Source: a virus (taxonomy: Duplodnaviria > Heunggongvirae > Uroviricota > Caudoviricetes). Taken from it: a DNA stretch of 35,415 bases. Shown here one piece after another: positions 9,532-30,248 of the stretch. The notes beneath the pieces were generated by a model, which was not told the origin of the DNA, searched no databases, and was given only the letters and a program-made list of their open reading frames with translations. The stretch lies in IMG/VR virus record IMGVR_UViG_2711768052_000009. One strand, 5' to 3'. The translations under genes were made by a program, and so were the position numbers. Position 1 is the stretch's first letter, and each line of letters opens with the position of its first letter.

Positions 9532-10435
9532 TCGCCCTCCTGAGAGACGGGATTTACGTGCATCCAGTGCATCACGCATGACGGTGATCGCATCGGTACT
9601 GTTAACAAGTTCATCAGCCAGTCCGGCATCAATGGCCTCCTGACCGCTGTACACTGCAGCCTCGGTATCCAGCACAGCCTGCACAGACAGGCCGGTATAT
9701 GCCGACACCTTCTGTGCAAACATCCGGCGGGTTGCATCCATCCGGGACTGCAGTGTTTCCCGGACATCATCCGGTAGATGGCTGTAGGGGTTGCCATCCA
9801 CCTTATGGCTGCCGCTGTAAATCAGCGTGATTTCCACGCCCTGTTTCTCCAGCGCAGCGCCGTAATTACTGTGAGCCATCATGACGCCGATGGAGCCTGT
9901 CCGGGCGGTCTGCGTGACCAGACGCCGGGAGGCGGCACTGGCAAGCAGCTGACCTGCGCTGCAGTTCATGTCATTGGCCAGCGCCCATACCGGCTTTATG
10001 TCACGCACACGGGCGATGATGTCAGCGCAGTCAAATGCCCCCGCCACCATTCCGCCTGGCGTATCCATATCGAGCAGAATGCCGTCCACCATCGGGTCAC
10101 TGGCAGCCTGTTGCAGACGGGCGATAATGCCGTTGTAACCGGTCATTCCCGAATACGGCTGCAGCGCCCGCGTCCGACTGACCAGCGTACCGGACACCGG
10201 CAGCACGGCGATGCCGTTCATGACCTGATAACTGCGGGCCTGTCGTGGTCCGTCATCATCACCGGATAACGCCAGCGCCGCGGGTGCCTCTCCGGCAGTC
10301 AGGCTGTCGCCGGATACTGCATCCGTCAGGCGGCTGATCCCAAGCTGGCCTGCAAGCGCACAAAAGAAAACCCGCGCATAGGCGGGTTCAAGCATCAGCG
10401 GCTCATTAAAAGCCATGCTGGCAATATGCGGGAGA

Positions 10436-14162: not shown

Positions 14163-14682
14163 TCAGCAACCCCGGTATCAGTTCATCCAGCGCGGCTGCT
14201 TTGTTCATGGCTTTGATGATATCCCGTTTCAGGAAATCAACATGTCGGTTTTCCAGTTCCGGAAAACGCCGCTGCACCGACAGGGGGATCCCGTCGAGAA
14301 TACTGGCAATTTCACCTGCGATCCGCGACAGCACGAAAGTACAGAATGCGGTTTCCACCACTTCAGCGGAGTCTCTGGCATTCTTCAGTTCCTGTGCGTC
14401 GGCCTGCGCACGCGTAAGTCGATGGCGTTCGTACTCAATAGTCCCTGGCTGGAGATCTGTCTCGCTGGCCTGCCGCAGTTCTTCAACTTCCCGGCGCAGC
14501 TTTTCGTTCTCAATTTCAGCATCCCTTTCGGCATACCATTTTATAACGGCGGCAGAGTCATAAAGCACCTCATTACCCTTGCCACCGCCTCGCAGAACGG
14601 GCATTCCCTGTTCCTGCCAGTTCTGAATGGTACGGATACTCGCACCGAAAATGTCAGCCAGCTGCTTTTTGTTGACTTCCAT
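14137..14682 (-). CDS. Nu1: Terminase small subunit Nu1
   Basis: 181 aa, MEVNKKQLADIFGASIRTIQNWQEQGMPVLRGGGKGNEVLYD...; matches lambda gpNu1 (winged HTH N-terminus). Confidence 0.93.
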
Positions 14683-14859
14683 TGTTCATTCCACGGACAA
14701 AAACAGAGAAAGGAAACGACAAAGGCCAAAAAGCCCGTTTTCAGCACCTGTCGTTTCCTTTCTTTTCAGGGGGTATTTTAAATAAAAACATTAAGTTACG
14801 ACGAAGAAGAACGGAAACACCTTAAACCGGAAAATTTTCATAAATAGCGAAAACCCGCG
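14683..14859 (-). promoter_or_regulatory. cosB (terminase small-subunit binding region with R-site repeats)
   Basis: Between cosN and the Nu1 start: inverted copies of TGTCGTTTCCT at 14711-14721 (as aggaaacgaca) and 14749-14759, and a GGTGTTTCCG-like element at 14812-14821, resembling lambda R3/R2/R1. Confidence 0.7.
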
Positions 14860-14871
14860 AGGTCGCCGCCC
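14860..14871. other. cosN, 12-nt cohesive end sequence (GGGCGGCGACCT on minus strand)
   Basis: Plus strand aggtcgccgccc at 14860-14871 is the reverse complement of the lambda cohesive end; the flanking cgtaacctgtcggatc matches the lambda right-end sequence as remembered. Confidence 0.85.
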
Positions 14872-15071
14872 CGTAACCTGTCGGATCGCCGGAAAGGACC
14901 CGCAAAAATGATAATAATTATCATCTACATGTCACAACGTGCATCTACGCCATCAAACCACGTCAAATAATCAATTATGACGCAGGTATCGTATTAATTG
15001 ATCTGCATCAACTTAACGTAAAAACAACTTCAGACAATACAAATCAGCGACACTGAATACGGGGCAACCTC

Positions 15072-15266
15072 ATGTCAACGAAGAACAGAACCCGCAGAAC
15101 AACAACCCGCAACATCCGCTTTCCTAACCAAATGATTGAACAAATTAACATCGCTCTTGAGCAAAAAGGGTCTGGGAATTTCTCAGCCTGGGTCATTGAA
15201 GCCTGCCGTCGGAGACTAACGTCAGAAAAGAGAGCATATACATCAATCCAAAGTGATGATGGATGA
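15072..15266 (+). CDS. Small ribbon-helix-helix-like protein (64 aa; possibly DLP12 ylcI-like DUF3950 protein)
   Basis: ATG at 15072; N-terminal basic stretch then IRFPNQMIEQINIALEQKGSGNFSAWVIEACRRRL, compatible with an RHH fold; family assignment is from memory only. Confidence 0.55.
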   Translation: MSTKNRTRRTTTRNIRFPNQMIEQINIALEQKGSGNFSAWVIEACRRRLTSEKRAYTSIQSDDG

Positions 15267-15626
15267 ACATCCCGGTTTCTTCCACCATCGCACCGGAAAA
15301 GCGACTATGAGGGTAACCCTGCGTCTGTCAGCACAGTAAAACCCGGTGTGCATCGTTTTTGATTATTCCCGCACACTCACGCAGAAGGAATTCCCCGTCG
15401 GGCTACGGTCATGGTTAATGCGGGAATACGGCGACGATACAGCGCAGCTAAAAGGGTAATGGACAGATAGAGCGGTTTATTTCATTCCACAGGATTCTGA
15501 GTGCCCCCCCTCCTCCAATAGGCTGAGCATCCACCTATATAGTTTTAATTTTCATCAATCCATTTAACTATCGTTTAATTGTTGTCACATAGGATTCTGC
15601 CGTTTTTAACAATGCAGGATAATAAG

Positions 15627-15920
15627 ATGAAAAAAATGTTGTTTTCTGCCGCTCTGGCAATGCTTATTACAGGATGTGCTCAACAGACGTTTACTGTTGG
15701 AAACAAACCGACAGCAGTAACACCAAAGGAAACCATCACCCATCATTTCTTCGTTTCGGGAATTGGACAGGAGAAAACTGTTGATGCAGCCAAAATTTGT
15801 GGCGGCGCAGAAAATGTTGTTAAAACAGAAACCCAGCAAACATTCGTAAATGGATTTCTCGGTTTTATTACTTTAGGCATTTATACTCCGCTGGAAGCGC
15901 GTGTGTATTGCTCACAATAA
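15627..15920 (+). CDS. bor: Bor lipoprotein (serum-resistance, lysogenic conversion)
   Basis: 97 aa from ATG 15627 (MKKMLFSAALAMLITGC AQQTFTV...); lipobox LITGC; matches lambda Bor; opposite strand to the late genes as in lambda. Confidence 0.9.
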   Translation: MKKMLFSAALAMLITGCAQQTFTVGNKPTAVTPKETITHHFFVSGIGQEKTVDAAKICGGAENVVKTETQQTFVNGFLGFITLGIYTPLEARVYCSQ

Positions 15921-15951
15921 TTGCATGAGTTGCCCATCGATATGGGCAGCT

Positions 15952-16413
15952 CTATCTGCACTGCTCATTAATATACTTCTGGGTTCCTTCCAGTTGTTTT
16001 TGCATAGTGATCAGCCTCTCTCTGAGGGTGAAATAATCCCGTTCAGCGGTGTCTGCCAGTCGGGGGGAGGCTGCATTATCCACGCCGGAGGCGGTGGTGG
16101 CTTCACGCACTGACTGACAGACTGCTTTGATGTGCAACCGACGACGACCAGCGGCAACATCATCACGCAGAGCATCATTTTCAGCTTTCGCATCAGCTAA
16201 CTCCTTCGTGTATTTTGCATCGAGCGCAGCAACATCACGCTGACGCATCTGCATGTCAGTAATTGCCGCGTTCGCCAGCTTCAGTTCTCTGGCATTTTTG
16301 TCGCGCTGGGCTTTGTAGGTAATGGCGTTATCACGGTAATGATTAACAGCCCATGACAGGCAGACGATGATGCAGATAACCAGAGCGGAGATAATCGCGG
16401 TTACTCTGTTCAT
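15952..16413 (-). CDS. Rz: Spanin inner-membrane subunit Rz (i-spanin)
   Basis: 153 aa from ATG 16411-16413 ([40 protein letters not shown]...); matches lambda Rz. Confidence 0.9.
16011..16193 (-). CDS. Rz1: Spanin outer-membrane lipoprotein subunit Rz1 (o-spanin), embedded in Rz +1 frame
   Basis: 60 aa, [24 protein letters not shown]...[16 protein letters not shown]; lipobox VVGC and proline-rich region; lies entirely inside Rz in another frame, as in lambda. Confidence 0.88.
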
Positions 16414-16907
16414 TGCTGACCCCACAAACAGATTTCACGCTCAATCTCACGACGAGTCATGAGACCTTTCCATTGCTTACCGCCAGCATATGTCCAGCGA
16501 CGTAGCTGATCACATGCGCCTTTGATATCGCCCTGGTTTATTTTGCGAAGAAGCGTCGATGTTCTGAAATTGCCAGCACCCACGTTGTAAACGAATGAGT
16601 AAAGAGCGCCGCGCATTGTTTCCGGTATATCGACTTTGATGTACGGGTTAATTTGTCTGGCGACCGTGGCAAGGTCTTTATTCAGGAGGGCTTTGCATTC
16701 TGCTTTGGTATACGTTTTACCGAGCATGATGTCTTTTCCTGTATGCCCGTGACATACAGTCCATACACCAACAATATCTTTGTATGGTATGTAGCTGACA
16801 CCTTCCAGACCATCGTTACCACTTGGGCCAGTGATTAACACTGATGCTATAGCAATTGCTCCGCCACCAATAGCAGCAGCAACGGCTTTTCGTAATGATG
16901 GAGGCAT
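16410..16907 (-). CDS. R: SAR endolysin (phage 21 R-type lysozyme, T4-lysozyme-like fold)
   Basis: 165 aa, [39 protein letters not shown]...; Gly/Ala-rich weakly hydrophobic N-terminal SAR segment; recognised as P21 R21-like, not lambda R transglycosylase. Confidence 0.88.
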
Positions 16908-17122
16908 TATTCACCTCTCGCAGCCTTGCGCTTATCTTCTTTAATCTTGAAATAAAGGTTTGTCAGGTACGTCAGCAGGCCAAATACCAGGCTACCCAGC
17001 ACACCTATTGCTGCCCACTGTGAGGGCGTGACTTTATCGAGCAGCTGTAAAAACCAGTAACCGGCACTACCTGCTGAGGTGCCATAGGCGACACCCGTTG
17101 TTAACTTATCCATGGATTTCAT
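16907..17122 (-). CDS. S: Pinholin S (phage 21 S21 type, dual-start motif)
   Basis: 71 aa from ATG 17120-17122: [71 protein letters not shown]; second in-frame ATG at codon 4 (17111-17113) gives the 68-aa form. Confidence 0.88.
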
Positions 17123-17250
17123 AACCCCACCTCGCAGACAAAGCGGGTGTAAATTGAGGGAATACAACGTATCGCAAAAAAGCAGAAACGTAACAGACTC
17201 GGAGTCAGTGAATAACTCAGGTATTGGGTTATCAGCTAATATCGAGACTC

Positions 17251-17283
17251 AAAAAATGGAAAAACCCGCTCGACGGCGGGTTT
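17251..17283 (-). terminator. Rho-independent terminator-like hairpin upstream of S on the late strand (candidate tR')
   Basis: Minus strand reads AAACCCGCCGTCGAGCGGGTTTTTCCATTTTTTGAG: GC-rich stem followed by a T-run, about 130 nt upstream of the S start. Confidence 0.5.
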
Positions 17284-17710
17284 AAGCTGTGTGACGAAGT
17301 AACCACTCTTAACAGCATAACCAATTTTTTACGTACGTAAACCACAAAATGATATTTGCGAGAATGCTACCGAGTATTGAAAACACCACTACAAATACAT
17401 AAGCAAATCTCAACAAATAACCAACAAATAATTTCCAGTGTTATTTTTAGCCGATTTAAATTGAACCTTCAAATTACAGAGCACTTATAAATAACAGCCG
17501 TTAATATAAATTGGCTAATAGATTTATTTTTATTCAGCCAAGATCCATGAATAGGATTCGATAGAAAAAAGTTCAGATAAAAATAGAGATCTACTTCACA
17601 AATCAAACGAGAAACCAAAACTTACATCTTGAAATAATCACATTGATTAGATGAATATTTATCGCGCAGTGACATCATTTTTTAATAATAGTTCAAAAAA
17701 AGGGCTCACG

Positions 17711-18793
17711 ATGAAAAAATTAACAGTGGCAATTTCTGCTGTAGCTGCATCAGTACTGATGGCGATGTCTGCTCAGGCAGCTGAAATTTATAATAAAGAC
17801 AGTAACAAGCTGGATCTATATGGGAAAGTTAATGCCAAGCACTACTTCTCCTCTAATGATGCAGATGATGGTGATACTACTTATGCCCGTCTTGGCTTCA
17901 AAGGTGAAACCCAAATCAACGATCAACTGACTGGTTTCGGTCAGTGGGAATATGAATTCAAAGGCAACCGCGCTGAATCTCAAGGCTCCTCCAAAGACAA
18001 AACCCGTCTTGCATTTGCAGGCCTGAAATTCGGGGACTACGGCTCAATCGATTACGGCCGTAACTACGGTGTAGCATATGACATCGGTGCGTGGACTGAC
18101 GTTCTGCCAGAATTCGGTGGCGATACCTGGACCCAAACAGATGTGTTCATGACTGGTCGCACCACTGGTGTTGCAACTTATCGTAACAACGACTTCTTTG
18201 GTCTGGTTGATGGTCTGAACTTTGCTGCTCAGTATCAGGGTAAAAATGACCGCACTGACGTAACTGAAGCTAATGGTGATGGTTTCGGTTTCTCCACTAC
18301 TTATGAGTATGAAGGATTCGGTGTAGGTGCAACCTATGCTAAATCTGACCGCACTAATAATCAGGTTATCTACGGTAACAACAGCCTGAATGCATCTGGT
18401 CAAAATGCTGAAGTATGGGCAGCTGGTCTGAAATATGATGCGAACAACATCTATCTGGCTACCACCTATTCTGAAACCCAGAACATGACTGTTTTTGGTA
18501 ATAACCATATTGCCAACAAAGCACAAAACTTCGAAGTAGTTGCACAATATCAGTTCGACTTCGGTCTGCGTCCGTCCGTTGCTTACCTGCAATCTAAAGG
18601 AAAAGACTTGGGTGCGTGGGGTGATCAGGACCTGGTTGAATATATTGATGTAGGTGCAACCTATTACTTCAACAAAAATATGTCCACTTTTGTTGATTAC
18701 AAAATCAACCTGATTGATAAGAGCGATTTCACGAAAGCATCTGGCGTTGCTACCGATGATATCGTTGCTGTAGGTATGGTTTACCAGTTCTAA
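17711..18793 (+). CDS. nmpC: OmpC-family outer-membrane porin (NmpC/Lc-like), intact
   Basis: 360 aa from ATG 17711: [47 protein letters not shown]...VGMVYQF; signal peptide and C-terminal aromatic residue typical of general porins; position between Q and S on the opposite strand as in DLP12 / PA-2. Confidence 0.88.
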
Positions 18794-18929
18794 TTTGATT
18801 ACTAAAAGATATGTTGCGGGAGGCTTTGCCTCCCCAACATATAAGTGGCTCCCTCAAGCCACTTCCTTTAGGAGCACAACCTTGCTTCTAACTATATAAA
18901 CCTTCTGTTATATATTACCCTTTATTTTT

Positions 18930-20237: not shown

Positions 20238-20400
20238 GATTCCTCCTTGCTGCCAGTCGCAACCATTTTTTATCAACCAGGCTAGCGGTATATCCGAGCA
20301 GTGTTGGTATTTCGGATGGCTTCAGCTCAGGCTTACGCTTACGACGATTTGATACTCTGTAGATGTGTCCGTTCATGACACGAATAAGCGGTGTAGCCAT
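20230..20400 (-). CDS. ninE: NinE-like small protein (56 aa)
   Basis: Not in the ORF track. ATG at 20398-20400 preceded by GCAGGAGG, overlapping the ybcN stop; translation [56 protein letters not shown]; its stop overlaps the ybcO start. Confidence 0.7.
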   Translation of the reverse strand: MATPLIRVMNGHIYRVSNRRKRKPELKPSEIPTLLGYTASLVDKKWLRLAARRNHG

Positions 20401-20855
20401 TACGCCTCCTGCTTGTCGCGGAGCAGCTGGAACTCGCAGCTCTGCGGAATAGTCAGGTGGCAGCCAATATTCACCGCCCAGGCTTCAACCTTACACAGGA
20501 AGACATACATCTCTCCGGTATCAAGATCGGAGGTATGGCGTAACGACTGGATAGTGGTGATATCACCGGTTACGACATCAACCAGGTCTTTGGTTTCATA
20601 ACCGAGATATGTGTGTTTGAGAGCATCTTTTACCCAAGCTGGAGTGGCGAACGTTTTACCCCTGCTGATGAGGTATTCACTGATTTCGCTGTACCACATG
20701 TGGCTGAGTGCATTCTGGGAAAGACTGCGTTTCTCACGCCACGGTTTAAGCACCATGCGAAAGCATTTGCCCTCCTCCAGATAAGGCTGGATCTGCCGAC
20801 CGATAGCGGTGAAGTTGCCGCGATGTAATTTGATGCCGTCTTGTGAGAGGTTCAC
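20400..20855 (-). CDS. ybcN: YbcN-like (NinB/Orf-family recombination mediator, DNA base-flipping protein)
   Basis: 151 aa, (M)[47 protein letters not shown]...; GTG start at 20853-20855 with GGAGGTGA RBS. Confidence 0.85.
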
Positions 20856-20953
20856 GCTTCACCTCCGCAGAGGTCAAACGCTAGATGCAAAGAATTGCAG
20901 GTGCATTTCTGCATCTGTGAAGGGAGAAGAGAGTTTGGATTGTATGTGCGCAT
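20852..20953 (-). CDS. ylcH: YlcH-like small protein (33 aa)
   Basis: Not in the ORF track. ATG at 20951-20953; translation [33 protein letters not shown]; stop overlaps the ybcN GTG start. Confidence 0.55.
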
Positions 20954-21069
20954 AAACGTCCCCGTTTAGCGCAGAAGTCACCGGAGTTGTTCAGGCTCCG
21001 GTGACATAATTATGCCGTGTTGATTTCCCAAAATCAAAATCGATAGAATTGCTCCTTCTTAAAACACTT

Positions 21070-21867
21070 TTACTCTCTGGAAGCTTTTCTTATCTCTCTT
21101 GGTGTTATATTAAAACGATTATGAAATCTTTCAGTAAAACGAGAAGGACACTTATAACCATTTTCTCTGGCAATCTCGCTTATAGGTTTTACCGTCGTTT
21201 GTATAGCAGACAACGCATTATTTAACCTCACATCGTCCAGTATACTTTGGAAACTTACCCCCTCGCTTGCTAGACGGCGATGTAATGTAGAAACAGAAAT
21301 GTAGAGATATCGAGCAACCTTGTTTGCTGTCCATTTTGTGCCGGGTTCGGATAGCAGCAGGTTATAACAACGACTTATCAATGATTGTTTACTATATGAT
21401 AAAAGTAAATGATTAACATGATTCACTCCTAACGAAAGTAGAACGCCCATTGCTAAGTGCTCCTGAATTTTAGTTGAGAAGCCTCGGGAAACAGATGTTT
21501 TTAGTTGCTCCCAACAATATATTAACTCAGGATTCTGAGGTAAAAATAAACTTGTTTTGTTACGTATTTGATCAGTTACCGTATAAAGTTTTTGGAAACT
21601 CTCAATTAAATCAATGGGTAAGTAAAGCATTTCTGCAAGATAAAGCCCTGCTTCAGGATAATTCTCAATATAAAATTCATAACCACAAGGAAATAATATT
21701 ATTTGATTATTATCAACAGTTAAAGTATGCGTCTCCCAATTGATAACTTTCTTTCCCTGACGGATACGACACAAAGCTGGCATAAGAGGCTTAACCCTAT
21801 GAATCTCATGATGTTTATGCATCCGTATTTCTTCGATCTTTAAGTTAGTCTTACCTCTTGCCAGCAT
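21070..21867 (-). CDS. ybcM: AraC/XylS-family transcriptional regulator (YbcM-like)
   Basis: 265 aa; C-terminal AraC-type HTH ([45 protein letters not shown]...); AT-rich coding sequence. Confidence 0.88.
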
Positions 21868-21876
21868 ACTCTCACC

Positions 21877-22428
21877 CTACTTTATCTCATAAACTGGTGT
21901 TATCTCAGCGGTTGCGATTTTATTAGCATTAAGCATATAACCAACTAACGCTCCGCTGGAGTTAGAATCTACAGGAATCTTTTCAGTTTTTAGAGCCCAT
22001 ACTTTAAACTGGTAATGATGTGGTTTATCTCCTTTAGGAGGACATGCGCCACCAAACCCAGCATAGCCAAAATCATTTCGGCCTTGAACAGCACCAGTCG
22101 GCAGTTTTGTTCCATCACGTCTCCCTGCATCAACGGGCAAATATGTTACTGTTGCTGGAATATTAACAACAGTCCAATGCCACCAACCACTGCCTGTAGG
22201 TGCATCTGGATCATATACAGTTACGGCAAAGCTTTTGGTACCTTCAGGAACACCAGACCAGGTTAATGAGGGCGATGTATTACCACCTTCACACCCAAAT
22301 CCAGAAAAGACATGAGACGTTGTAAGTTGCTCTCCTGTTTTTATTTCATTACTAGTGACCTGAAATGCTGCAGCCTGCGCAGAAAATGTTATGAATGCCA
22401 ATACAGTTGAAACGATAAGTGTTTTCAT
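21877..22428 (-). CDS. ybcL: Periplasmic PEBP/RKIP-family protein (YbcL-like)
   Basis: 183 aa with signal peptide MKTLIVSTVLAFITFSAQAAA; PEBP-like motifs (YDPDAP...GWWHW...PPKGDKPHHYQFKVWAL). Confidence 0.88.
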   Translation of the reverse strand: MKTLIVSTVLAFITFSAQAAAFQVTSNEIKTGEQLTTSHVFSGFGCEGGNTSPSLTWSGVPEGTKSFAVTVYDPDAPTGSGWWHWTVVNIPATVTYLPVDAGRRDGTKLPTGAVQGRNDFGYAGFGGACPPKGDKPHHYQFKVWALKTEKIPVDSNSSGALVGYMLNANKIATAEITPVYEIK

Positions 22429-22892
22429 AAAAACCTCTTTGTTATGACCTATCGTTATTTTATTTGATATTCCTTTATCTCATTATGCATAAAGGCGCAA
22501 TGTTCATGCAAAAGCAATCACAATTGTACCCCCAACCCAATTATTTGCCACAATATACACAAAGCACATTGATACTATCTAAAAACTCTGCTTTATTATT
22601 AGTAATACCTACGAAAGTCGGTGTTATTTTTTAACCTACCATTCAAAATACGTGACATACACCATTTTGCTCATAATAATTTGTCACGTATTTTCAGTAT
22701 TTGAATCTGCGACCAAGAGTTCTCACCTAACAAATGATTAAGATTGTATAGCTCATTTACTACCCCAATACAGCCGTACAAAACTCGCTTGTGGGAGCAA
22801 ACAAAGTAATTACCCATTAAGTTTCGTCAAAGATAATTAATTCTGTCTTGCACTTTATCACCATAGCATAACTTAAAATCCGAGATCATTAT

Positions 22893-24419
22893 TTAGAAAT
22901 AAATCTCACCATCAACCATATATTTGAGAGCACTTATCGCCTGCTGGGCGGATATTACTTTCATTAAAGGATAGTGTTTAAAAACAATGCCATTCATAAA
23001 ATAGATATCACAGGTTTTATTATCCGTATTAATTATGATTTTTTCGAATGTTTTATAGGCAAGTGTACGGCATAACTCTCGTCCATTTTTACTGGTTAAG
23101 TCAATAGCATAAAAATCACTGAATGAATTTACACCTTTACTCTTCAAAGTTTTCAATGATACCGAAGCCCTTCGTAATTCCTTATCTAATAGTCTTATTT
23201 TCTCTGCTATAGCGGTAACTTCAGGCGCGACAGACAATGCAACGATTAAATTATTAATTTTCATCTGAAGCTCAATAATTTTTAACTCTAAAGTTTCATT
23301 AGCATCTTTCTTGTTTTCAACTGGTTGAATTTTGCTACAATTAAAAAGCAATTCATTAATGATATTATAATCAACCAAATCTCTTTTTATTGATGGCCTG
23401 TCACATCGATGTAATCTTCTCATCGGACAAACATAATAGCCATGCAAACTTCCAGATACCGCATGAACAATCATGGTATTACCACAAGCCTCACACTTCA
23501 TAACTGTTCGAAGTAGATTTATTAGCATAGGATTCTTGCTACTATTGCTAATACCAAAAGGTGCCAACCGAATTTCCTGTACAGCGTAAAACAAATCATC
23601 TGATATGACTCTGGGATAATAGCCAGCGATTTCACTTATCCCTTTCCCTCTTGCACGATATGAAGGTACGCATATACCTATCAGAGCTTTATTCGCTAAT
23701 AATTTTTCAATTACAGAAGGTCCCCATGCACTTTCTTTTCCTGAGAAATTCTTTACAGCATGATCATTTAAATACTTGGCTATTGCATTCAATGAGCGCC
23801 TTTCCATCCTGAGTTTAAAAATTAGCTCAATAGTTTTCACCCTGTCGGGGTCTGGAACAAAAGCCGTTCTTTTGTCATCTAAGGAGAGCCATCTCGGACA
23901 AGACGCCGTCATAATCGTACCTGATTCCAGTGCATCCTGCCGTTTTTTCTTCCATGATAATTTAACCCGACTTGACTTTATCTCGCTTTCTTCATTTGCC
24001 CTTTGTGCTATAAGTATGGCTTTTATTAATGAATATGGCTCATTCAAAGAGTCAATATTATAGACTGTATTGTCGCAAAGAGTTATAACATCAATACCGT
24101 GATTCAAAATCAATTTCAGACGTTCAATCGCTTCACCGACTTTTTCTCTTGAAAGTCTGTCCAGACTTTCAACTAACAATGTAGTTCCTGGCAATATATA
24201 ACCATGCTCTATAGCATCTAAAAATTCCGAAAAAGCTCCTGATTGTGCATGCTTTCCTTTGAATGCACTTAATCCTAAATCTTCATATGTTATGGTATCA
24301 AGATAATAATCACTATTTACCTTTAACCATTCAGCAATAAGTCTTCTCTGTCGGTTTAATGAGTCGCCAGACATCTGACCTGGTGATGAAAATCGCATAT
24401 ATGCTATGGCTTTTTTCAT
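22893..24419 (-). CDS. ybcK: Large serine recombinase (resolvase/invertase N-terminal catalytic domain, recombinase domain, zinc ribbon; YbcK-like)
   Basis: 508 aa; N-terminal AIAYMRFSSPGQ with candidate catalytic Ser; Cys cluster CEACGN...CPMRRLHRCD; AT-rich. Confidence 0.85.
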   Translation of the reverse strand: MKKAIAYMRFSSPGQMSGDSLNRQRRLIAEWLKVNSDYYLDTITYEDLGLSAFKGKHAQSGAFSEFLDAIEHGYILPGTTLLVESLDRLSREKVGEAIERLKLILNHGIDVITLCDNTVYNIDSLNEPYSLIKAILIAQRANEESEIKSSRVKLSWKKKRQDALESGTIMTASCPRWLSLDDKRTAFVPDPDRVKTIELIFKLRMERRSLNAIAKYLNDHAVKNFSGKESAWGPSVIEKLLANKALIGICVPSYRARGKGISEIAGYYPRVISDDLFYAVQEIRLAPFGISNSSKNPMLINLLRTVMKCEACGNTMIVHAVSGSLHGYYVCPMRRLHRCDRPSIKRDLVDYNIINELLFNCSKIQPVENKKDANETLELKIIELQMKINNLIVALSVAPEVTAIAEKIRLLDKELRRASVSLKTLKSKGVNSFSDFYAIDLTSKNGRELCRTLAYKTFEKIIINTDNKTCDIYFMNGIVFKHYPLMKVISAQQAISALKYMVDGEIYF

Positions 24420-24599
24420 GGTGACACCTGCTAACGTATGCTTTTATAAACCTTAGTGGTGGGATATAATTTTTGTTTAATTTTTATTTAAAAAGACAAT
24501 TAAGGTCACATTATCTTGAATATACAACAATAATCGTATTGCAATTTTCTTACGCCATAATCTTGAAAGCACAAAAGAATACATAAAAAATAAAGACAT

Positions 24600-24643
24600 T
24601 AACAAAAAGCATAAAACGAGGCTCATATAAATATAAGAGCCTC
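24600..24643 (-). terminator. Rho-independent terminator downstream of emrE
   Basis: GAGGCTC...GAGCCTC 7-bp inverted repeat (24618-24643) followed on the minus strand by GTTTTATGCTTTTTGTT. Confidence 0.55.
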
Positions 24644-24673
24644 CATATTTTAGTCGTTTAGAAACAAATTATT

Positions 24674-25006
24674 TTAATGTGGTGTGCTTCGTGACAATAA
24701 ATTAATAACCAACACACCGGCACAAATCAACATCATGCCTATAATGGCTGGCAGGTCCAGCCGTTGGCCGAAAAATCCCCATGACAGTAAGCTAATCAGG
24801 ACAATACCGACTCCTGACCAGATAGCATAAGCAATCCCTGTAGGAATATAAGCCAGCGTCTGAGCTAATAACCAGAATGATGCACAATAACAAATAATTG
24901 TACCAACAGATGGCCATAACCGTGTAAAACCTTCTGAAAACTTCATTAAGGTTGTACCAATGACCTCTGCAAGTATTGCACCACCAAGATAAATATAAGG
25001 GTTCAT
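24674..25006 (-). CDS. emrE: SMR-family multidrug efflux transporter EmrE
   Basis: 110 aa from ATG 25004-25006: MNPYIYLGGAILAEVIGTTLMKFSEGFTRLWPSVGTIICYCASFWLLAQTLAYIPTGIAYAIWSGVGIVLISLLSWGFFGQRLDLPAIIGMMLICAGVLVINLLSRSTPH; four TM helices with the conserved Glu in TM1. Confidence 0.92.
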   Translation of the reverse strand: MNPYIYLGGAILAEVIGTTLMKFSEGFTRLWPSVGTIICYCASFWLLAQTLAYIPTGIAYAIWSGVGIVLISLLSWGFFGQRLDLPAIIGMMLICAGVLVINLLSRSTPH

Positions 25007-25073
25007 AGCATATTCTTTCCTGTTCAAACTGGAGAGAATTGTACTACAGTTTGAACTCAACTCACCTGTTTCA

Positions 25074-25376
25074 TCATTGTGTTCCCATTGATGTTCTTTT
25101 ATATACCCTCAGTACCCGTTTCATCGCGGCACTCTGGCGACACTCCTTAAAAATCAGATTCGTGCTCACCTTTCCTTCCCGTTCTTCTCTGGTAGCGAAC
25201 CGGTAATACACCGTTCGCCAGACCTTACCATCAACGACCAGGATTCCTGCCCGCGCCATTTTAGCCGCAGCCTGATTTATGCTGGTTACGGTTGCGCCTG
25301 TTACCGCGGCAACGTCCTGTGCACAGAAGCTCTTATGCGTCCCCAGGTAATGAATAATTGCCTCTTTGCCCGTCAT
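25074..25376 (-). CDS. ren: Ren protein (confers resistance to Rex exclusion in lambda)
   Basis: 100 aa, MTGKEAIIHYLGTHKSFCAQDVAAVTGATVTSINQAAAKMARAGILVVDGKVWRTVYYRFATREEREGK...; matches lambda Ren; start overlaps the P stop. Confidence 0.88.
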   Translation of the reverse strand: MTGKEAIIHYLGTHKSFCAQDVAAVTGATVTSINQAAAKMARAGILVVDGKVWRTVYYRFATREEREGKVSTNLIFKECRQSAAMKRVLRVYKRTSMGTQ

Positions 25377-26074
25377 ACACTTGCTCCTTTCAGTCCGAAC
25401 TTAGCTTTGATTTCTGCGATCTTCGCCAGAGCCTGTGCACGATTTAGAGGTCTACCGCCCATGACAGGAAGTTGTTTTACTGGTTCAGGTATCGCCTCAC
25501 CACGGTTAATTCGCGCGGTCATACAGGACAGTTCATCGGCAGCCTTGCGCCGTAATTCCGCGTCAGTCAACGCATTGGCCCGCATGTTCTGATACAGGTT
25601 GGTAACCAGCCAGTAGTGCGCGTTTGATTTCCACGGATAAGACTCTGCATCCGGATACAGACCACGCTTCCGGCAATACTCGTAAACCATATCAACCAGC
25701 TCGCTGACGTTTGGCAGCCCGGCGGTAACGGATGCTTCTTCCCGGCACCATGCAACAAACTGCCCGGGTGATGGCAGAAATGGTCTATTCTGCCGACGGG
25801 CAACACGCATTCCGGCGCTCACCTGTTCCATCGTGGTGATCCCGTTTTCCCGGAAAGCCAGAACCCACTGGCGGCGGATTTCGTTCAGTTCGTTCTGGTC
25901 ACGATTAGCCAGGCTCGCCGGGAAAGTTGCCAGTAACTGGCTGAATACACCGTTGATTATCTGCGCTACCTGCTGTACCTGCGGCTTTTCGTCGTACTGT
26001 TCCGGCATGTTGTTGGCGATCCGACGCATCTGCTCACGGTCAAAGTTAATCATCTGTGCGGCGATGTTTTTCAT
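25373..26074 (-). CDS. P: Replication protein P (DnaB helicase loader)
   Basis: 233 aa, MKNIAAQMINFDREQMRRIANNMPEQYDEKPQVQQVAQIINGVFSQ...; matches lambda gpP. Confidence 0.93.
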   Translation of the reverse strand: MKNIAAQMINFDREQMRRIANNMPEQYDEKPQVQQVAQIINGVFSQLLATFPASLANRDQNELNEIRRQWVLAFRENGITTMEQVSAGMRVARRQNRPFLPSPGQFVAWCREEASVTAGLPNVSELVDMVYEYCRKRGLYPDAESYPWKSNAHYWLVTNLYQNMRANALTDAELRRKAADELSCMTARINRGEAIPEPVKQLPVMGGRPLNRAQALAKIAEIKAKFGLKGASV

Positions 26075-28782: not shown

Positions 28783-29508
28783 ATGGAAGAACGTGGGAAT
28801 TACCTAATAGAACCCCTAGAAGTAATTGGTTCTGGCGGTTTTGGCCTTGTAGAAAAAATAAGGTTATATAACTCACAAAGAAAAATTTGTGGTCTATATG
28901 CCAGAAAAATTTTACGACCTGATGCAACAGATCCTGAACTCTTTACCAGATTTGAACGAGAAGTAAGATATCAAACTGAATGCCTGCATACTAATATTGT
29001 CCAAATATTCATATGCCACTTACAGAATGCTCAGCCTTGGTTCGTAATGGAACTAGCAGAAACAAATCTTGAAGAAGAAATAAAAAGTGGAACTCTTACA
29101 AAGGCTGAAAAAATCTCTATTGTAAAAATGGTACTAAATGCCGTCGGATGGATTCATAAGAAAGGATATCTTCATCGGGATATAAAACCACTAAATGTAC
29201 TAAAATTTAAAGATGGAATTTATAAGTTATCTGACTTCGGCCTTGCAAAAAATGTGTCACCAGATGCCAATACACAGCTATTAACACAAATTGGCCAATA
29301 CCCCGCTACTCCTAAATACTTTGATTACAACGTTTTCCTCAACGGATATTCAAAACAATCAGATATATATTCAATTGGTATTTTAATTGAAGAATTAAAT
29401 ATTGATGGTTTTGATGATATAATAAACAAATGTACGCATAGACAACTTAACAAAAGATTCCTGACCGTAGAGCAGATCTTTGAGGAATTGGAGTTGAAAC
29501 GCTTATGA
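28783..29508 (+). CDS. Hanks-type (eukaryotic-like) Ser/Thr protein kinase, minimal catalytic domain only (241 aa)
   Basis: ATG 28783 with AGGA RBS; Gly loop IGSGGFGLV (res 15-23); beta3 Lys in YARK (res 40-43); catalytic loop HRDIKPLN (res 131-138, nt 29173-29196); DFG in LSDFGLAK (res 150-152); APE-like ATPKY; DIYSIG (subdomain IX). No TM or sensor domains. AT-rich. Confidence 0.85.
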   Translation: MEERGNYLIEPLEVIGSGGFGLVEKIRLYNSQRKICGLYARKILRPDATDPELFTRFEREVRYQTECLHTNIVQIFICHLQNAQPWFVMELAETNLEEEIKSGTLTKAEKISIVKMVLNAVGWIHKKGYLHRDIKPLNVLKFKDGIYKLSDFGLAKNVSPDANTQLLTQIGQYPATPKYFDYNVFLNGYSKQSDIYSIGILIEELNIDGFDDIINKCTHRQLNKRFLTVEQIFEELELKRL

Positions 29509-30248
29509 TTAGCATACTCTCATCATCCATATTTTCTGTACCAAAACATAATGGCAGGGAAAATCAAGATAGCGTGCTTTATCCACTTCAAACACCAAAT
29601 GGTTATCTTATGGCTATAGCTGATGGGGTTGGTGGTTATAAAGGAGGAAAAGAAGCATCTGCAGCAGTAATAAATCATTTGTATAGTATTAAAGACAGCT
29701 TCACTCATGAAGACAATGTCTTATCCTTACTTAAGACCCTACAAGAAAAGGTGGCATCTCTTTCGTCAGTTGATAAAGAATTAGCATCTGCTGCTACAAC
29801 TTTAACAATGTGCCTACTTCACAATCAAGGTCTAACAATTATACATGTAGGTGACTGTCGTGTTTATTTAAAAAATGGAAATAAGCTAATCCAATTAACA
29901 ACAGATCATACTCAACATCAAATGTTGATAGATAGCGGTATTTATACAGCTCGACAGCTCAAAAATGCAAAAGGTAAAAATATTATTACAACTGCACTTG
30001 CTGCCAAGATCCCCCTTCAACATCAAGTCATAAATATTGATAAAGATGAACTTCCTCTTGACGATGGTGTTCTATCTCTATTCATCATGTCTGATGGCGC
30101 GCATACCTTTTGGGAGCAACGCCCACGATTTTCTTACCGTACATTGTCAACCGCATCAAGGTTTGCCTCCAGCCTAATGCGAAGAATAGAGACAAAAGGC
30201 CCGACTGACGATTATTCTCTTATAGCGGTAAATGTAAAGTATTTGTAA
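29505..30248 (+). CDS. PP2C/PPM-family Ser/Thr protein phosphatase (247 aa)
   Basis: ATG 29505 overlapping the kinase stop (ATGA); PPM motifs IADGVGGYKGG, HVGDCRVY (GDSR-type), TTDHT, FIMSDGA; compact bacterial PP2C size. Confidence 0.8.
   Translation: MISILSSSIFSVPKHNGRENQDSVLYPLQTPNGYLMAIADGVGGYKGGKEASAAVINHLYSIKDSFTHEDNVLSLLKTLQEKVASLSSVDKELASAATTLTMCLLHNQGLTIIHVGDCRVYLKNGNKLIQLTTDHTQHQMLIDSGIYTARQLKNAKGKNIITTALAAKIPLQHQVINIDKDELPLDDGVLSLFIMSDGAHTFWEQRPRFSYRTLSTASRFASSLMRRIETKGPTDDYSLIAVNVKYL

Follow-up and report, generated by a model that had tools for sequence, protein, structure and literature searches.

An AT-rich block in the nin region of a DLP12-type lambda-like phage is probably a mosaic of passenger modules not moved by the serine recombinase it encodes

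When a full-length serine recombinase gene lies among passenger genes of a lambda-like phage, is it the agent that moved them? The question is raised by IMG/VR virus record IMGVR_UViG_2711768052_000009 (Caudoviricetes), a stretch of 35,415 nucleotides referred to here as the window, in which an AT-rich block encoding EmrE, YlcJ, the large serine recombinase YbcK, YbcL, and YbcM interrupts the nin region. A first-pass annotation, made from the sequence alone, had proposed that this block was, or still is, an independently mobile cassette. Our analysis did not bear this out: ybcK lies in the middle of the block, the modules of the block occur separately, and the block edges are common to cargo that lacks a recombinase. 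Most probably, the block is a mosaic of separately acquired AT-rich passenger modules that was not moved by its own recombinase. It is also already known, being the annotated emrE-ylcJ-ybcK-ybcL-ybcM cargo of DLP12, here found in a near-intact lambda-like phage.

The window represents a lambda-like prophage with its early-right and late phage genes on the minus strand. The five cargo genes share this strand. To their right is ren (25074-25376), and the phage neighbors to the left are ylcH (20852-20953), ybcN (20400-20855), ninE, ybcO, and rusA. Assignments of ybcM, ybcL, ybcK, ylcJ, and emrE were backed by domain and family searches (Pfam and NCBIfam). The interval delimited in the first-pass annotation, 21070-25006, has the stop codon of ybcM and the start codon of emrE as its exact ends, and the four gene identities it gave were correct, though the 49-amino-acid ylcJ (24477-24626) was overlooked. 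Its view of these genes as AT-rich cargo unrelated to phage propagation also held, the genes being foreign-looking and base composition far from uniform: guanine-cytosine (GC) content was 0.363 across 21043-25111 compared to 0.509 and 0.511 in the flanks, and GC content at third codon positions (GC3) was 0.25 to 0.35 in the block compared to 0.44 to 0.61 in neighboring phage genes. Among all 4.07-kb segments of the stretch (mean 0.493, SD 0.066), the block had the lowest GC content. A PADLOC scan of YbcM, YbcL, YbcK, and EmrE returned zero matches to defense systems.

The resemblance to DLP12 noted in the first-pass annotation proved to be exact. Gene order (ren-emrE-ylcJ-ybcK-ybcL-ybcM-ylcH-ybcN) is the same in Escherichia coli K-12, the block aligns without gaps to b0543-b0546 of K-12 MG1655 over 4,121 bases, only 6 of which are mismatched (99.854% identity), and the YbcK proteins have identical amino acids. 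DLP12 of K-12 (renD-emrE-ylcJ-ybcK-ybcL-ybcM-ylcH-ybcN; b0542-b0547) hence has the same genes, order, and flanks as the window. Unlike K-12 DLP12, the window and its near-identical relatives retain replication, immunity, lysis, head, and tail genes, and their ren and porin genes are free of insertion sequence (IS) elements. The chromosome of E. coli C5 matches positions 20300-25500 at 100% identity; its prophage adjoins the tRNA-Arg gene argU, has intD, and is fully equipped with replication, lysis, head, and tail genes. Across window positions 10500-35415, phage record PhiR68_2 gave 94% coverage at 99.1% identity, and this phage was used in plaquing assays (bioRxiv preprint 10.1101/2025.11.03.685801). 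Since plaque-forming phages of the PhiR68_2 type carry the block, infectious phages transport the cargo. The DLP12 of K-12 descends from such a phage and is its decayed remnant.

Comparison with relatives placed the block in a variable slot. The left edge of this slot lies at ~21039-21043, just past ylcH, with which the conserved phage genes begin on that side, and a conserved hairpin (20977-21005), and the right edge at ~25112-25114, in the 3' end of ren. The same edges are used by relatives with unrelated cargo and no recombinase; in PhiR30_1 the slot holds lipoprotein and acyltransferase genes with neither emrE nor ybcK, and in PhiR26_1 it holds PD-lambda-1. Homology common to all variants stops at 21014-21043, beside the hairpin, while on the other side PhiR30_1 homology picks up again at 25112-25114, within ren, and a ybcK-less remnant next to fliE (described below) shares sequence to 25082. 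Block boundaries thus essentially coincide with the ends of conserved phage sequence in relatives, which the first-pass annotation had associated with an ancient, fixed moron, but the cargo is swapped rather than fixed.

Among carriers, emrE-ylcJ-ybcK was constant and the segment between ybcK and the hairpin varied. In the window, K-12, and PhiR68_2, ybcK is followed by ybcLM, in place of which Perceval, 4A7, 1W, and related phages have an esterase (alpha/beta hydrolase) gene, locus L011 has three small open reading frames (ORFs), and E57 encodes a P22AR-C-domain protein and a hypothetical protein. EDL933 was considered as an "empty" ybcK-ylcH variant and rejected, being of the L011 type with two internal deletions. 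Site-specific exchange of cargo just 3' of ybcK, suggested by a common breakpoint at 22884, was also rejected. Perceval, L011, and E57 have a second allele of the ybcK 3' flank in common, yet their cargo breakpoints lie at unequal distances from the ybcK stop codon (218, 255, and 326 bp), which argues that no single recombination site exists 3' of ybcK.

All block genes are under purifying selection, judged by ratios of nonsynonymous to synonymous substitution (dN/dS). Against the fliE remnant copies, dN/dS was 0.011 for emrE, 0.09 for ybcL, and 0.14 for ybcM, and for ybcK it was 0.077 between the window and Perceval alleles. RNA folding placed stable stem-loops after emrE, ybcK, and ybcM, one per module. 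The block resembles the morons and hotspots of lambda-like phages (lambda bor/lom and rexAB; PD-lambda-1), extras of deviant composition set among conserved phage genes, with a predicted stem-loop or promoter region apiece, whose place is empty or taken by other genes in relatives. Unlike typical morons, the window slot stacks several modules and includes a full-length gene of the serine integrase type, an unusual passenger in a phage with a tyrosine integrase.

A separate arrangement of the modules was evident in E. coli chromosomes. In 2,627 to 2,628 of 5,426 complete E. coli genomes (~48%), ybcM-ybcL-emrE occurred without ybcK. In every locus examined (L003 3500-6000; L101 156-3600), this decayed remnant lies between yedK and fliE and is stripped down to ybcM, ybcL, emrE, and a porin gene, phage genes and ybcK being absent. 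Homology between window and remnant ends at 22525-22581 and resumes at 24660-24668. In the remnant of strain HH45, ybcLM and emrE match window-type alleles and the central 92 bp are remnant-type, a pattern consistent with gene conversion, and this strain places the heterology at ~22503-24667 (92 bp versus ~2,165 bp in the window). Of the 2,627 ybcK-less copies spanning the junction, the 25 best were at most 93.7%, and mostly 87.9 to 88.5%, identical to the window type.

We then scrutinized the block for traces of movement by its recombinase. The ybcK gene is not at an edge, lying ~1.85 kb from the left block edge and 0.7 kb from the right. A repeat search of the block and the whole window gave short chance-level matches only, and no inverted or direct repeats linked the block edges or the ends of the ybcK segment. 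Likewise, when the flanks of ybcK and both block edges were scanned for imperfect dyads of 46 bp, no signal resembling an attachment (att) site stood out from shuffled controls. The best dyads had 11 to 14 of 22 matches. Only at the right edge did the top score (13) pass the 95th percentile of shuffles, and the dyad in question is a weak emrE-ren stem-loop; the highest score of all (14) belongs to the hairpin that follows emrE. Among the 5,426 genomes, 1,424 carried ybcK, full-length in 1,398, at no more than three places per genome. The emrE-ylcJ-ybcK junction was intact in 1,402 genomes, compared to the 1,398 with full-length ybcK, indicating that ybcK in E. coli is essentially always found in this single context, and no other upstream junction of ybcK was seen in this set. 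Nor was recent excision apparent, no ybcK-less copy being more than 94% identical to the window type in these genomes. Spread beyond the slot, or transposition, was not seen in the same genomes or in a plasmid collection, in which only three records matched (0.39 to 4.9 Mb), the two examined carrying chromosomal genes or prophage sequence.

The recombinase itself appears sound. YbcK matched Pfam domains Resolvase (PF00239, 5.5e-19), Recombinase (PF07508, 2.3e-14), and Zn_ribbon_recom (PF13408, 7.9e-08). Its catalytic N terminus and zinc ribbon, at first described as intact-looking, are so at the residue level: catalytic S11, together with R9, D47, D87, R88, and R91, and zinc-ribbon cysteines C309, C312, C331, and C339 were invariant in 30 homologs down to 28% identity. 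In a family profile, residues 1 to 139 aligned to the TP901-1 catalytic domain and residues 140 to 472 to SPbeta SprA. The AlphaFold2 model (predicted local distance difference test score 81.5) has long helices at 346 to 427, a coiled-coil insertion, and its top Foldseek matches were full-length SPbeta, PhiC31, and Bxb1 integrases (E 1.5e-18); a single-sequence search against the PDB found no match, whereas profile and fold searches did. YbcK thus shares its three-domain architecture, catalytic residues, and predicted fold with SPbeta SprA and the PhiC31, Bxb1, and TP901-1 integrases, though identity is low (14 to 19% in structural alignments). Judged by its sequence and model, it is probably a complete large serine recombinase under purifying selection. 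Unlike the genes for those integrases, ybcK has no attP, attL, or attR found alongside and is not at a prophage or island edge; the prophage's own integrase is the tyrosine integrase IntD at argU. In K-12, transcription of ybcK is limited by t_ybcK, a Rho/NusG-dependent terminator in its leader (PMC4150792), and a ybcK mutant left excision of the H47 island unaffected in the one system tested (PMC5426353). Otherwise, the only reported phenotypes of ybcK overexpression and deletion concern sabinene tolerance (PMC7181518), and our literature search found no paper characterizing recombination activity of YbcK.

Full-length YbcK homologs of 36 to 61% identity were found across Enterobacterales, and 23 enterobacterial loci were classified by Pfam scans of neighboring genes, marker-based tblastn being too insensitive. 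Relatives of 39% identity lie ~50 bp from the edge of 7- to 10-kb islands in Mixta, Serratia, Leclercia, and Rahnella that split the T2SSE ATPase gene within the part encoding the motif GHLVLSTLHTN, a position that looks like classic integrase behavior. These islands (L031 9517-21348; also L032, L033, and L035) carry two AbiTii genes and a small resolvase gene, and their island-side junction sequence is near-identical across genera; the host proteins are only 41 to 50% identical. In splitting a gene, the islands resemble the serine-recombinase elements of Bacillus subtilis (skin, SpoIVCA) and Anabaena (fdxN, XisF); XisF was the sole NCBIfam match to YbcK (1.9e-12, far below its cutoff). Unlike the skin and fdxN elements, the ybcK segment of the window splits no visible gene, and no complementary gene halves lie beside it. 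In Lonsdalea and Erwinia, a YbcK homolog abuts an N-terminally truncated SPFH/Band_7 gene.

Closer homologs were the last gene of a prophage, following the tail-fiber chaperone gene and adjoining host DNA, in Atlantibacter (by ssrA), Erwinia (by lepA), two Yersinia species, Ewingella, and Pantoea, some of them by yedK-like genes. Inversion of tail-fiber genes by these homologs was considered and set aside, no convincing inverted repeats or inverted gene copies being found. Between two prophages of Yersinia enterocolitica (L007 ~9700-9790), a 3' tRNA gene fragment (...GGTTCAAGTCCCGCCCCGGGCACCA) separates the YbcK homolog at the end of a lambda-like prophage from the ogr end of an adjacent P2-like prophage; ARAGORN found no intact tRNA there, and the fragment marks a tyrosine-integrase attachment core of one or the other prophage. 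In a plasmid-like contig of Citrobacter koseri (L013 ~9680-9810), ~17 copies of the heptamer TTGTTTC precede a YbcK homolog that is divergent from a Shufflon_N-domain (PilV-like) gene, and this run could confer phase-variable expression. Homologs also recurred in the nin region of lambda-like prophages, namely in the metagenomic locus L012, Atlantibacter (L019), Pantoea dispersa, and Candidatus Pantoea alvi, the P. dispersa prophage having a tyrosine integrase at its end. In L012 and in locus L038, diverged partial copies of a neighboring phage gene flank the insert that contains the YbcK homolog, one of them just upstream of the recombinase gene. The copies comprise the first 60 codons of a DUF1367 gene in L012 (9652-9851 and 12633-12831; 85 to 86% nucleotide identity) and the C-terminal two-thirds of P in L038 (9281-9657 and 12216-12592; 76%), and both duplications look like scars of illegitimate recombination between different phages. 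L005 and L012 have only the recombinase gene and 68 nucleotides upstream in common.

Against this background, three other explanations of the locus were weighed. That the whole four-gene block is one cassette mobilized by YbcK, as first proposed, would account for the similarly low GC content of the four genes and for the intact recombinase inside, but it is highly improbable given that ybcK is internal, that emrE-ybcK without ybcLM and ybcLM-emrE without ybcK both occur, that edges common to recombinase-free cargo bear no terminal repeats, and that the plasmid collection yielded just three large records, the two examined being chromosomal or prophage in content. Movement of a smaller unit is also unlikely. 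Here, ylcJ-ybcK with its 3' flank (~22503/22582 to 24660/24667, 2.1 kb) would be the present or former minimal integrative element of the serine recombinase, having entered an ancestral phage between emrE and the ybcLM promoter, with the fliE remnant as the empty site. The indel difference between window and remnant, with its defined ends of homology, would fit such an element, as would a complete YbcK under purifying selection, the island-edge relatives ~50 bp from junctions in four genera, closer relatives at prophage ends beside host genes, the limited sequence common to L005 and L012, and the location of ybcK at the edge of this sub-block, a compatible geometry. However, neither end had a dyad or inverted-repeat signal above shuffles, and the haplotypes differ by substitution (92 bp for ~2,165 bp) rather than by clean insertion. 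Furthermore, the genome survey found no close ybcK-less copy of the window type and no ybcK linked to anything upstream other than emrE via ylcJ.

Several of these observations nonetheless count against a mosaic in which the recombinase is only a passenger. Window and fliE remnant differ by insertion or deletion of the ybcK segment, and the 36 to 39%-identical relatives are established edge-of-island integrases, so the ybcK module could have had a site-specific origin. With a dN/dS of 0.08 and all catalytic residues in place, YbcK must presumably have a DNA substrate, and none came to light in this analysis. In addition, a promoter consensus scan of the block found sites no more frequently than in shuffles. 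The third explanation is a role in the service of the phage: YbcK would be induced by antiterminated read-through and provide a second recombination activity independent of the tyrosine integrase, by which the phage might, for example, integrate into the host at a secondary site or recombine with other prophages. The strong purifying selection on ybcK in phages equipped with IntD, its retention in plaque-forming phages, Rho-dependent silencing in the lysogen (PMC4150792), the integrase history of the family, and the recurrence of homologs in the nin region of lambda-like prophages, one with a tyrosine integrase at its end, all favor such a role. Even so, we consider it quite unlikely, as no permuted prophage or host junction beside ybcK was seen in E. 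coli, no attP-like site was detected near ybcK, no recombination directionality factor was identified, and the K-12 ybcK mutant had no effect on H47 island excision in a single system (PMC5426353).

Under the preferred reading, that of a mosaic of passenger modules, the ren-ylcH/ybcN cargo slot of DLP12- and phage 82-type lambda-like phages would hold at least three morons, i.e., emrE with its terminator, ylcJ-ybcK with ~300 bp of 3' flank, and the autoregulated ybcLM operon with its promoter. The modules may have been assembled and exchanged by homologous recombination in conserved flanks, plus occasional illegitimate recombination between coresident lambda-like phages, and YbcK would not be their mover. 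Live phages would bring the block genes to new hosts by lysogeny; EmrE exports cationic compounds, and YbcL and YbcM would act in stress response or host interaction. Host-useful genes would then outlast the phage, as in K-12 DLP12 and the remnant by fliE. YbcK comes from a family of island and prophage integrases and has no detectable cognate sites in this phage. Expression of ybcK is kept low in the K-12 lysogen through the Rho-dependent terminator and would probably occur mainly upon antiterminated read-through from PR after induction.

Features of the variable slot and its left flank, with positions in the window
Feature	Coordinates	Strand	Description
ylcH	20852..20953	-	33-amino-acid ORF; annotated ylcH in K-12; kept in all slot variants
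GC-rich stem-loop, 10-bp stem	20977..21005	-	RNA fold -19.8 kcal/mol, z -4.9
ybcM, AraC-family regulator	21070..21867	-	Pfam HTH_18 9.5e-17; second gene of ybcLM operon
ybcL, periplasmic PEBP/RKIP-like protein	21877..22428	-	Pfam PBP 3.2e-42; NCBIfam PRK09818 1.1e-120
ybcLM upstream (promoter/operator) region	22429..22581	-	Homologous to ybcL-emrE intergenic region of the ybcK-less remnant
ybcK 3' flank, window/K-12-type allele	22582..22883	-	Absent from fliE remnant
ybcK, large serine recombinase, 508 amino acids	22893..24419	-	Resolvase, Recombinase, and Zn_ribbon_recom domains
ylcJ, 49-amino-acid hydrophobic small protein	24477..24626	-	Pfam YlcJ 2.4e-35
Stem-loop and U-run just past emrE stop codon	24618..24643	-	RNA fold -14 kcal/mol, z -3.9
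emrE, SMR efflux transporter, 110 amino acids	24674..25006	-	NCBIfam SMR_efflux_EmrE 1.9e-72
emrE upstream region and variant ren 3' end	25007..25111	-	Right edge of variable slot

Individual features add detail to the modules. The stem-loop at the left edge, between ybcM and ylcH, is kept in the window, Perceval, PhiR30_1, the fliE remnant, and every slot variant, and is possibly a terminator or regulatory hairpin. The phage 82 record X92588 has it as well, and annotates a possible regulator-binding site and promoter elements there. In K-12, chromatin immunoprecipitation with exonuclease treatment (ChIP-exo) detected YbcM binding upstream of ybcLM, and autoregulation of ybcLM, a ybcLM promoter with a YbcM site, and an oxidative-stress phenotype were reported (PMC8464067). 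The corresponding region of the window travels with ybcLM, its identity to the remnant being strong up to 22525 and weak to ~22581. The ybcK 3' flank contains a perfect 13-bp stem-loop at 22645-22694 (fold z -4.2); the other allele of this flank, found in Perceval and L011, is ~255 bp long and ~70% similar in the first 80 nucleotides only. The small gene ylcJ is placed within the untranslated leader of ybcK, and YlcJ expression has been demonstrated in K-12 (PMC6001520). The stem-loop past emrE overlaps the ylcJ start and is likely the intrinsic terminator of emrE.

Other AT-rich cargo was found elsewhere in the window. Directly downstream of cI, at the position of lambda rexAB, a gene pair on the plus strand (28783-30248; GC 0.34 to 0.37, GC3 0.25) encodes a Ser/Thr protein kinase (Pkinase 2.5e-32; PADLOC PD-T4-6/mad6/Stk2-like) and a PP2C phosphatase, and is probably a prophage exclusion or defense module. 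The pair is missing from E. coli C5, and L011 has ImmA/IrrE and DUF4411 at that position. More AT-rich cargo occurs in the late region (14500-18800), comprising ylcI and an iss/bor-type lipoprotein gene by analogy with locus L001. An intact nmpC/OmpC-like porin gene (17651-18793; Porin_1 3.7e-153) is preceded by a stretch with GC content of 0.32 to 0.36, and its K-12 counterpart is broken by IS5.

The block is textbook K-12 annotation and not a new object. Its occurrence in intact, plaque-forming relatives of DLP12 means that infectious phages disseminate ybcLM and emrE, the latter conferring efflux of drugs and biocides, and about half of E. coli genomes keep a ybcK-less copy of these host-useful genes after decay of the phage. 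YbcK is the only large serine recombinase of E. coli and is strongly conserved with no known substrate. It is rather unlikely, though worth stating, that YbcK is an active serine integrase kept by functional DLP12- and 82-type phages as a second recombination system, silenced by Rho in the lysogen and activated by read-through. If so, YbcK could enable recombination of the phage, or of the emrE-ybcK unit, at a secondary site, and genes of the YbcK family would be recurrent recombinase cargo at two Enterobacterales phage hotspots, the nin region and the position just past the tail-fiber chaperone gene. If a substrate of YbcK exists, it would provide an example of a phage with two integrase systems and possibly a new tool-type integrase from a very tractable host.

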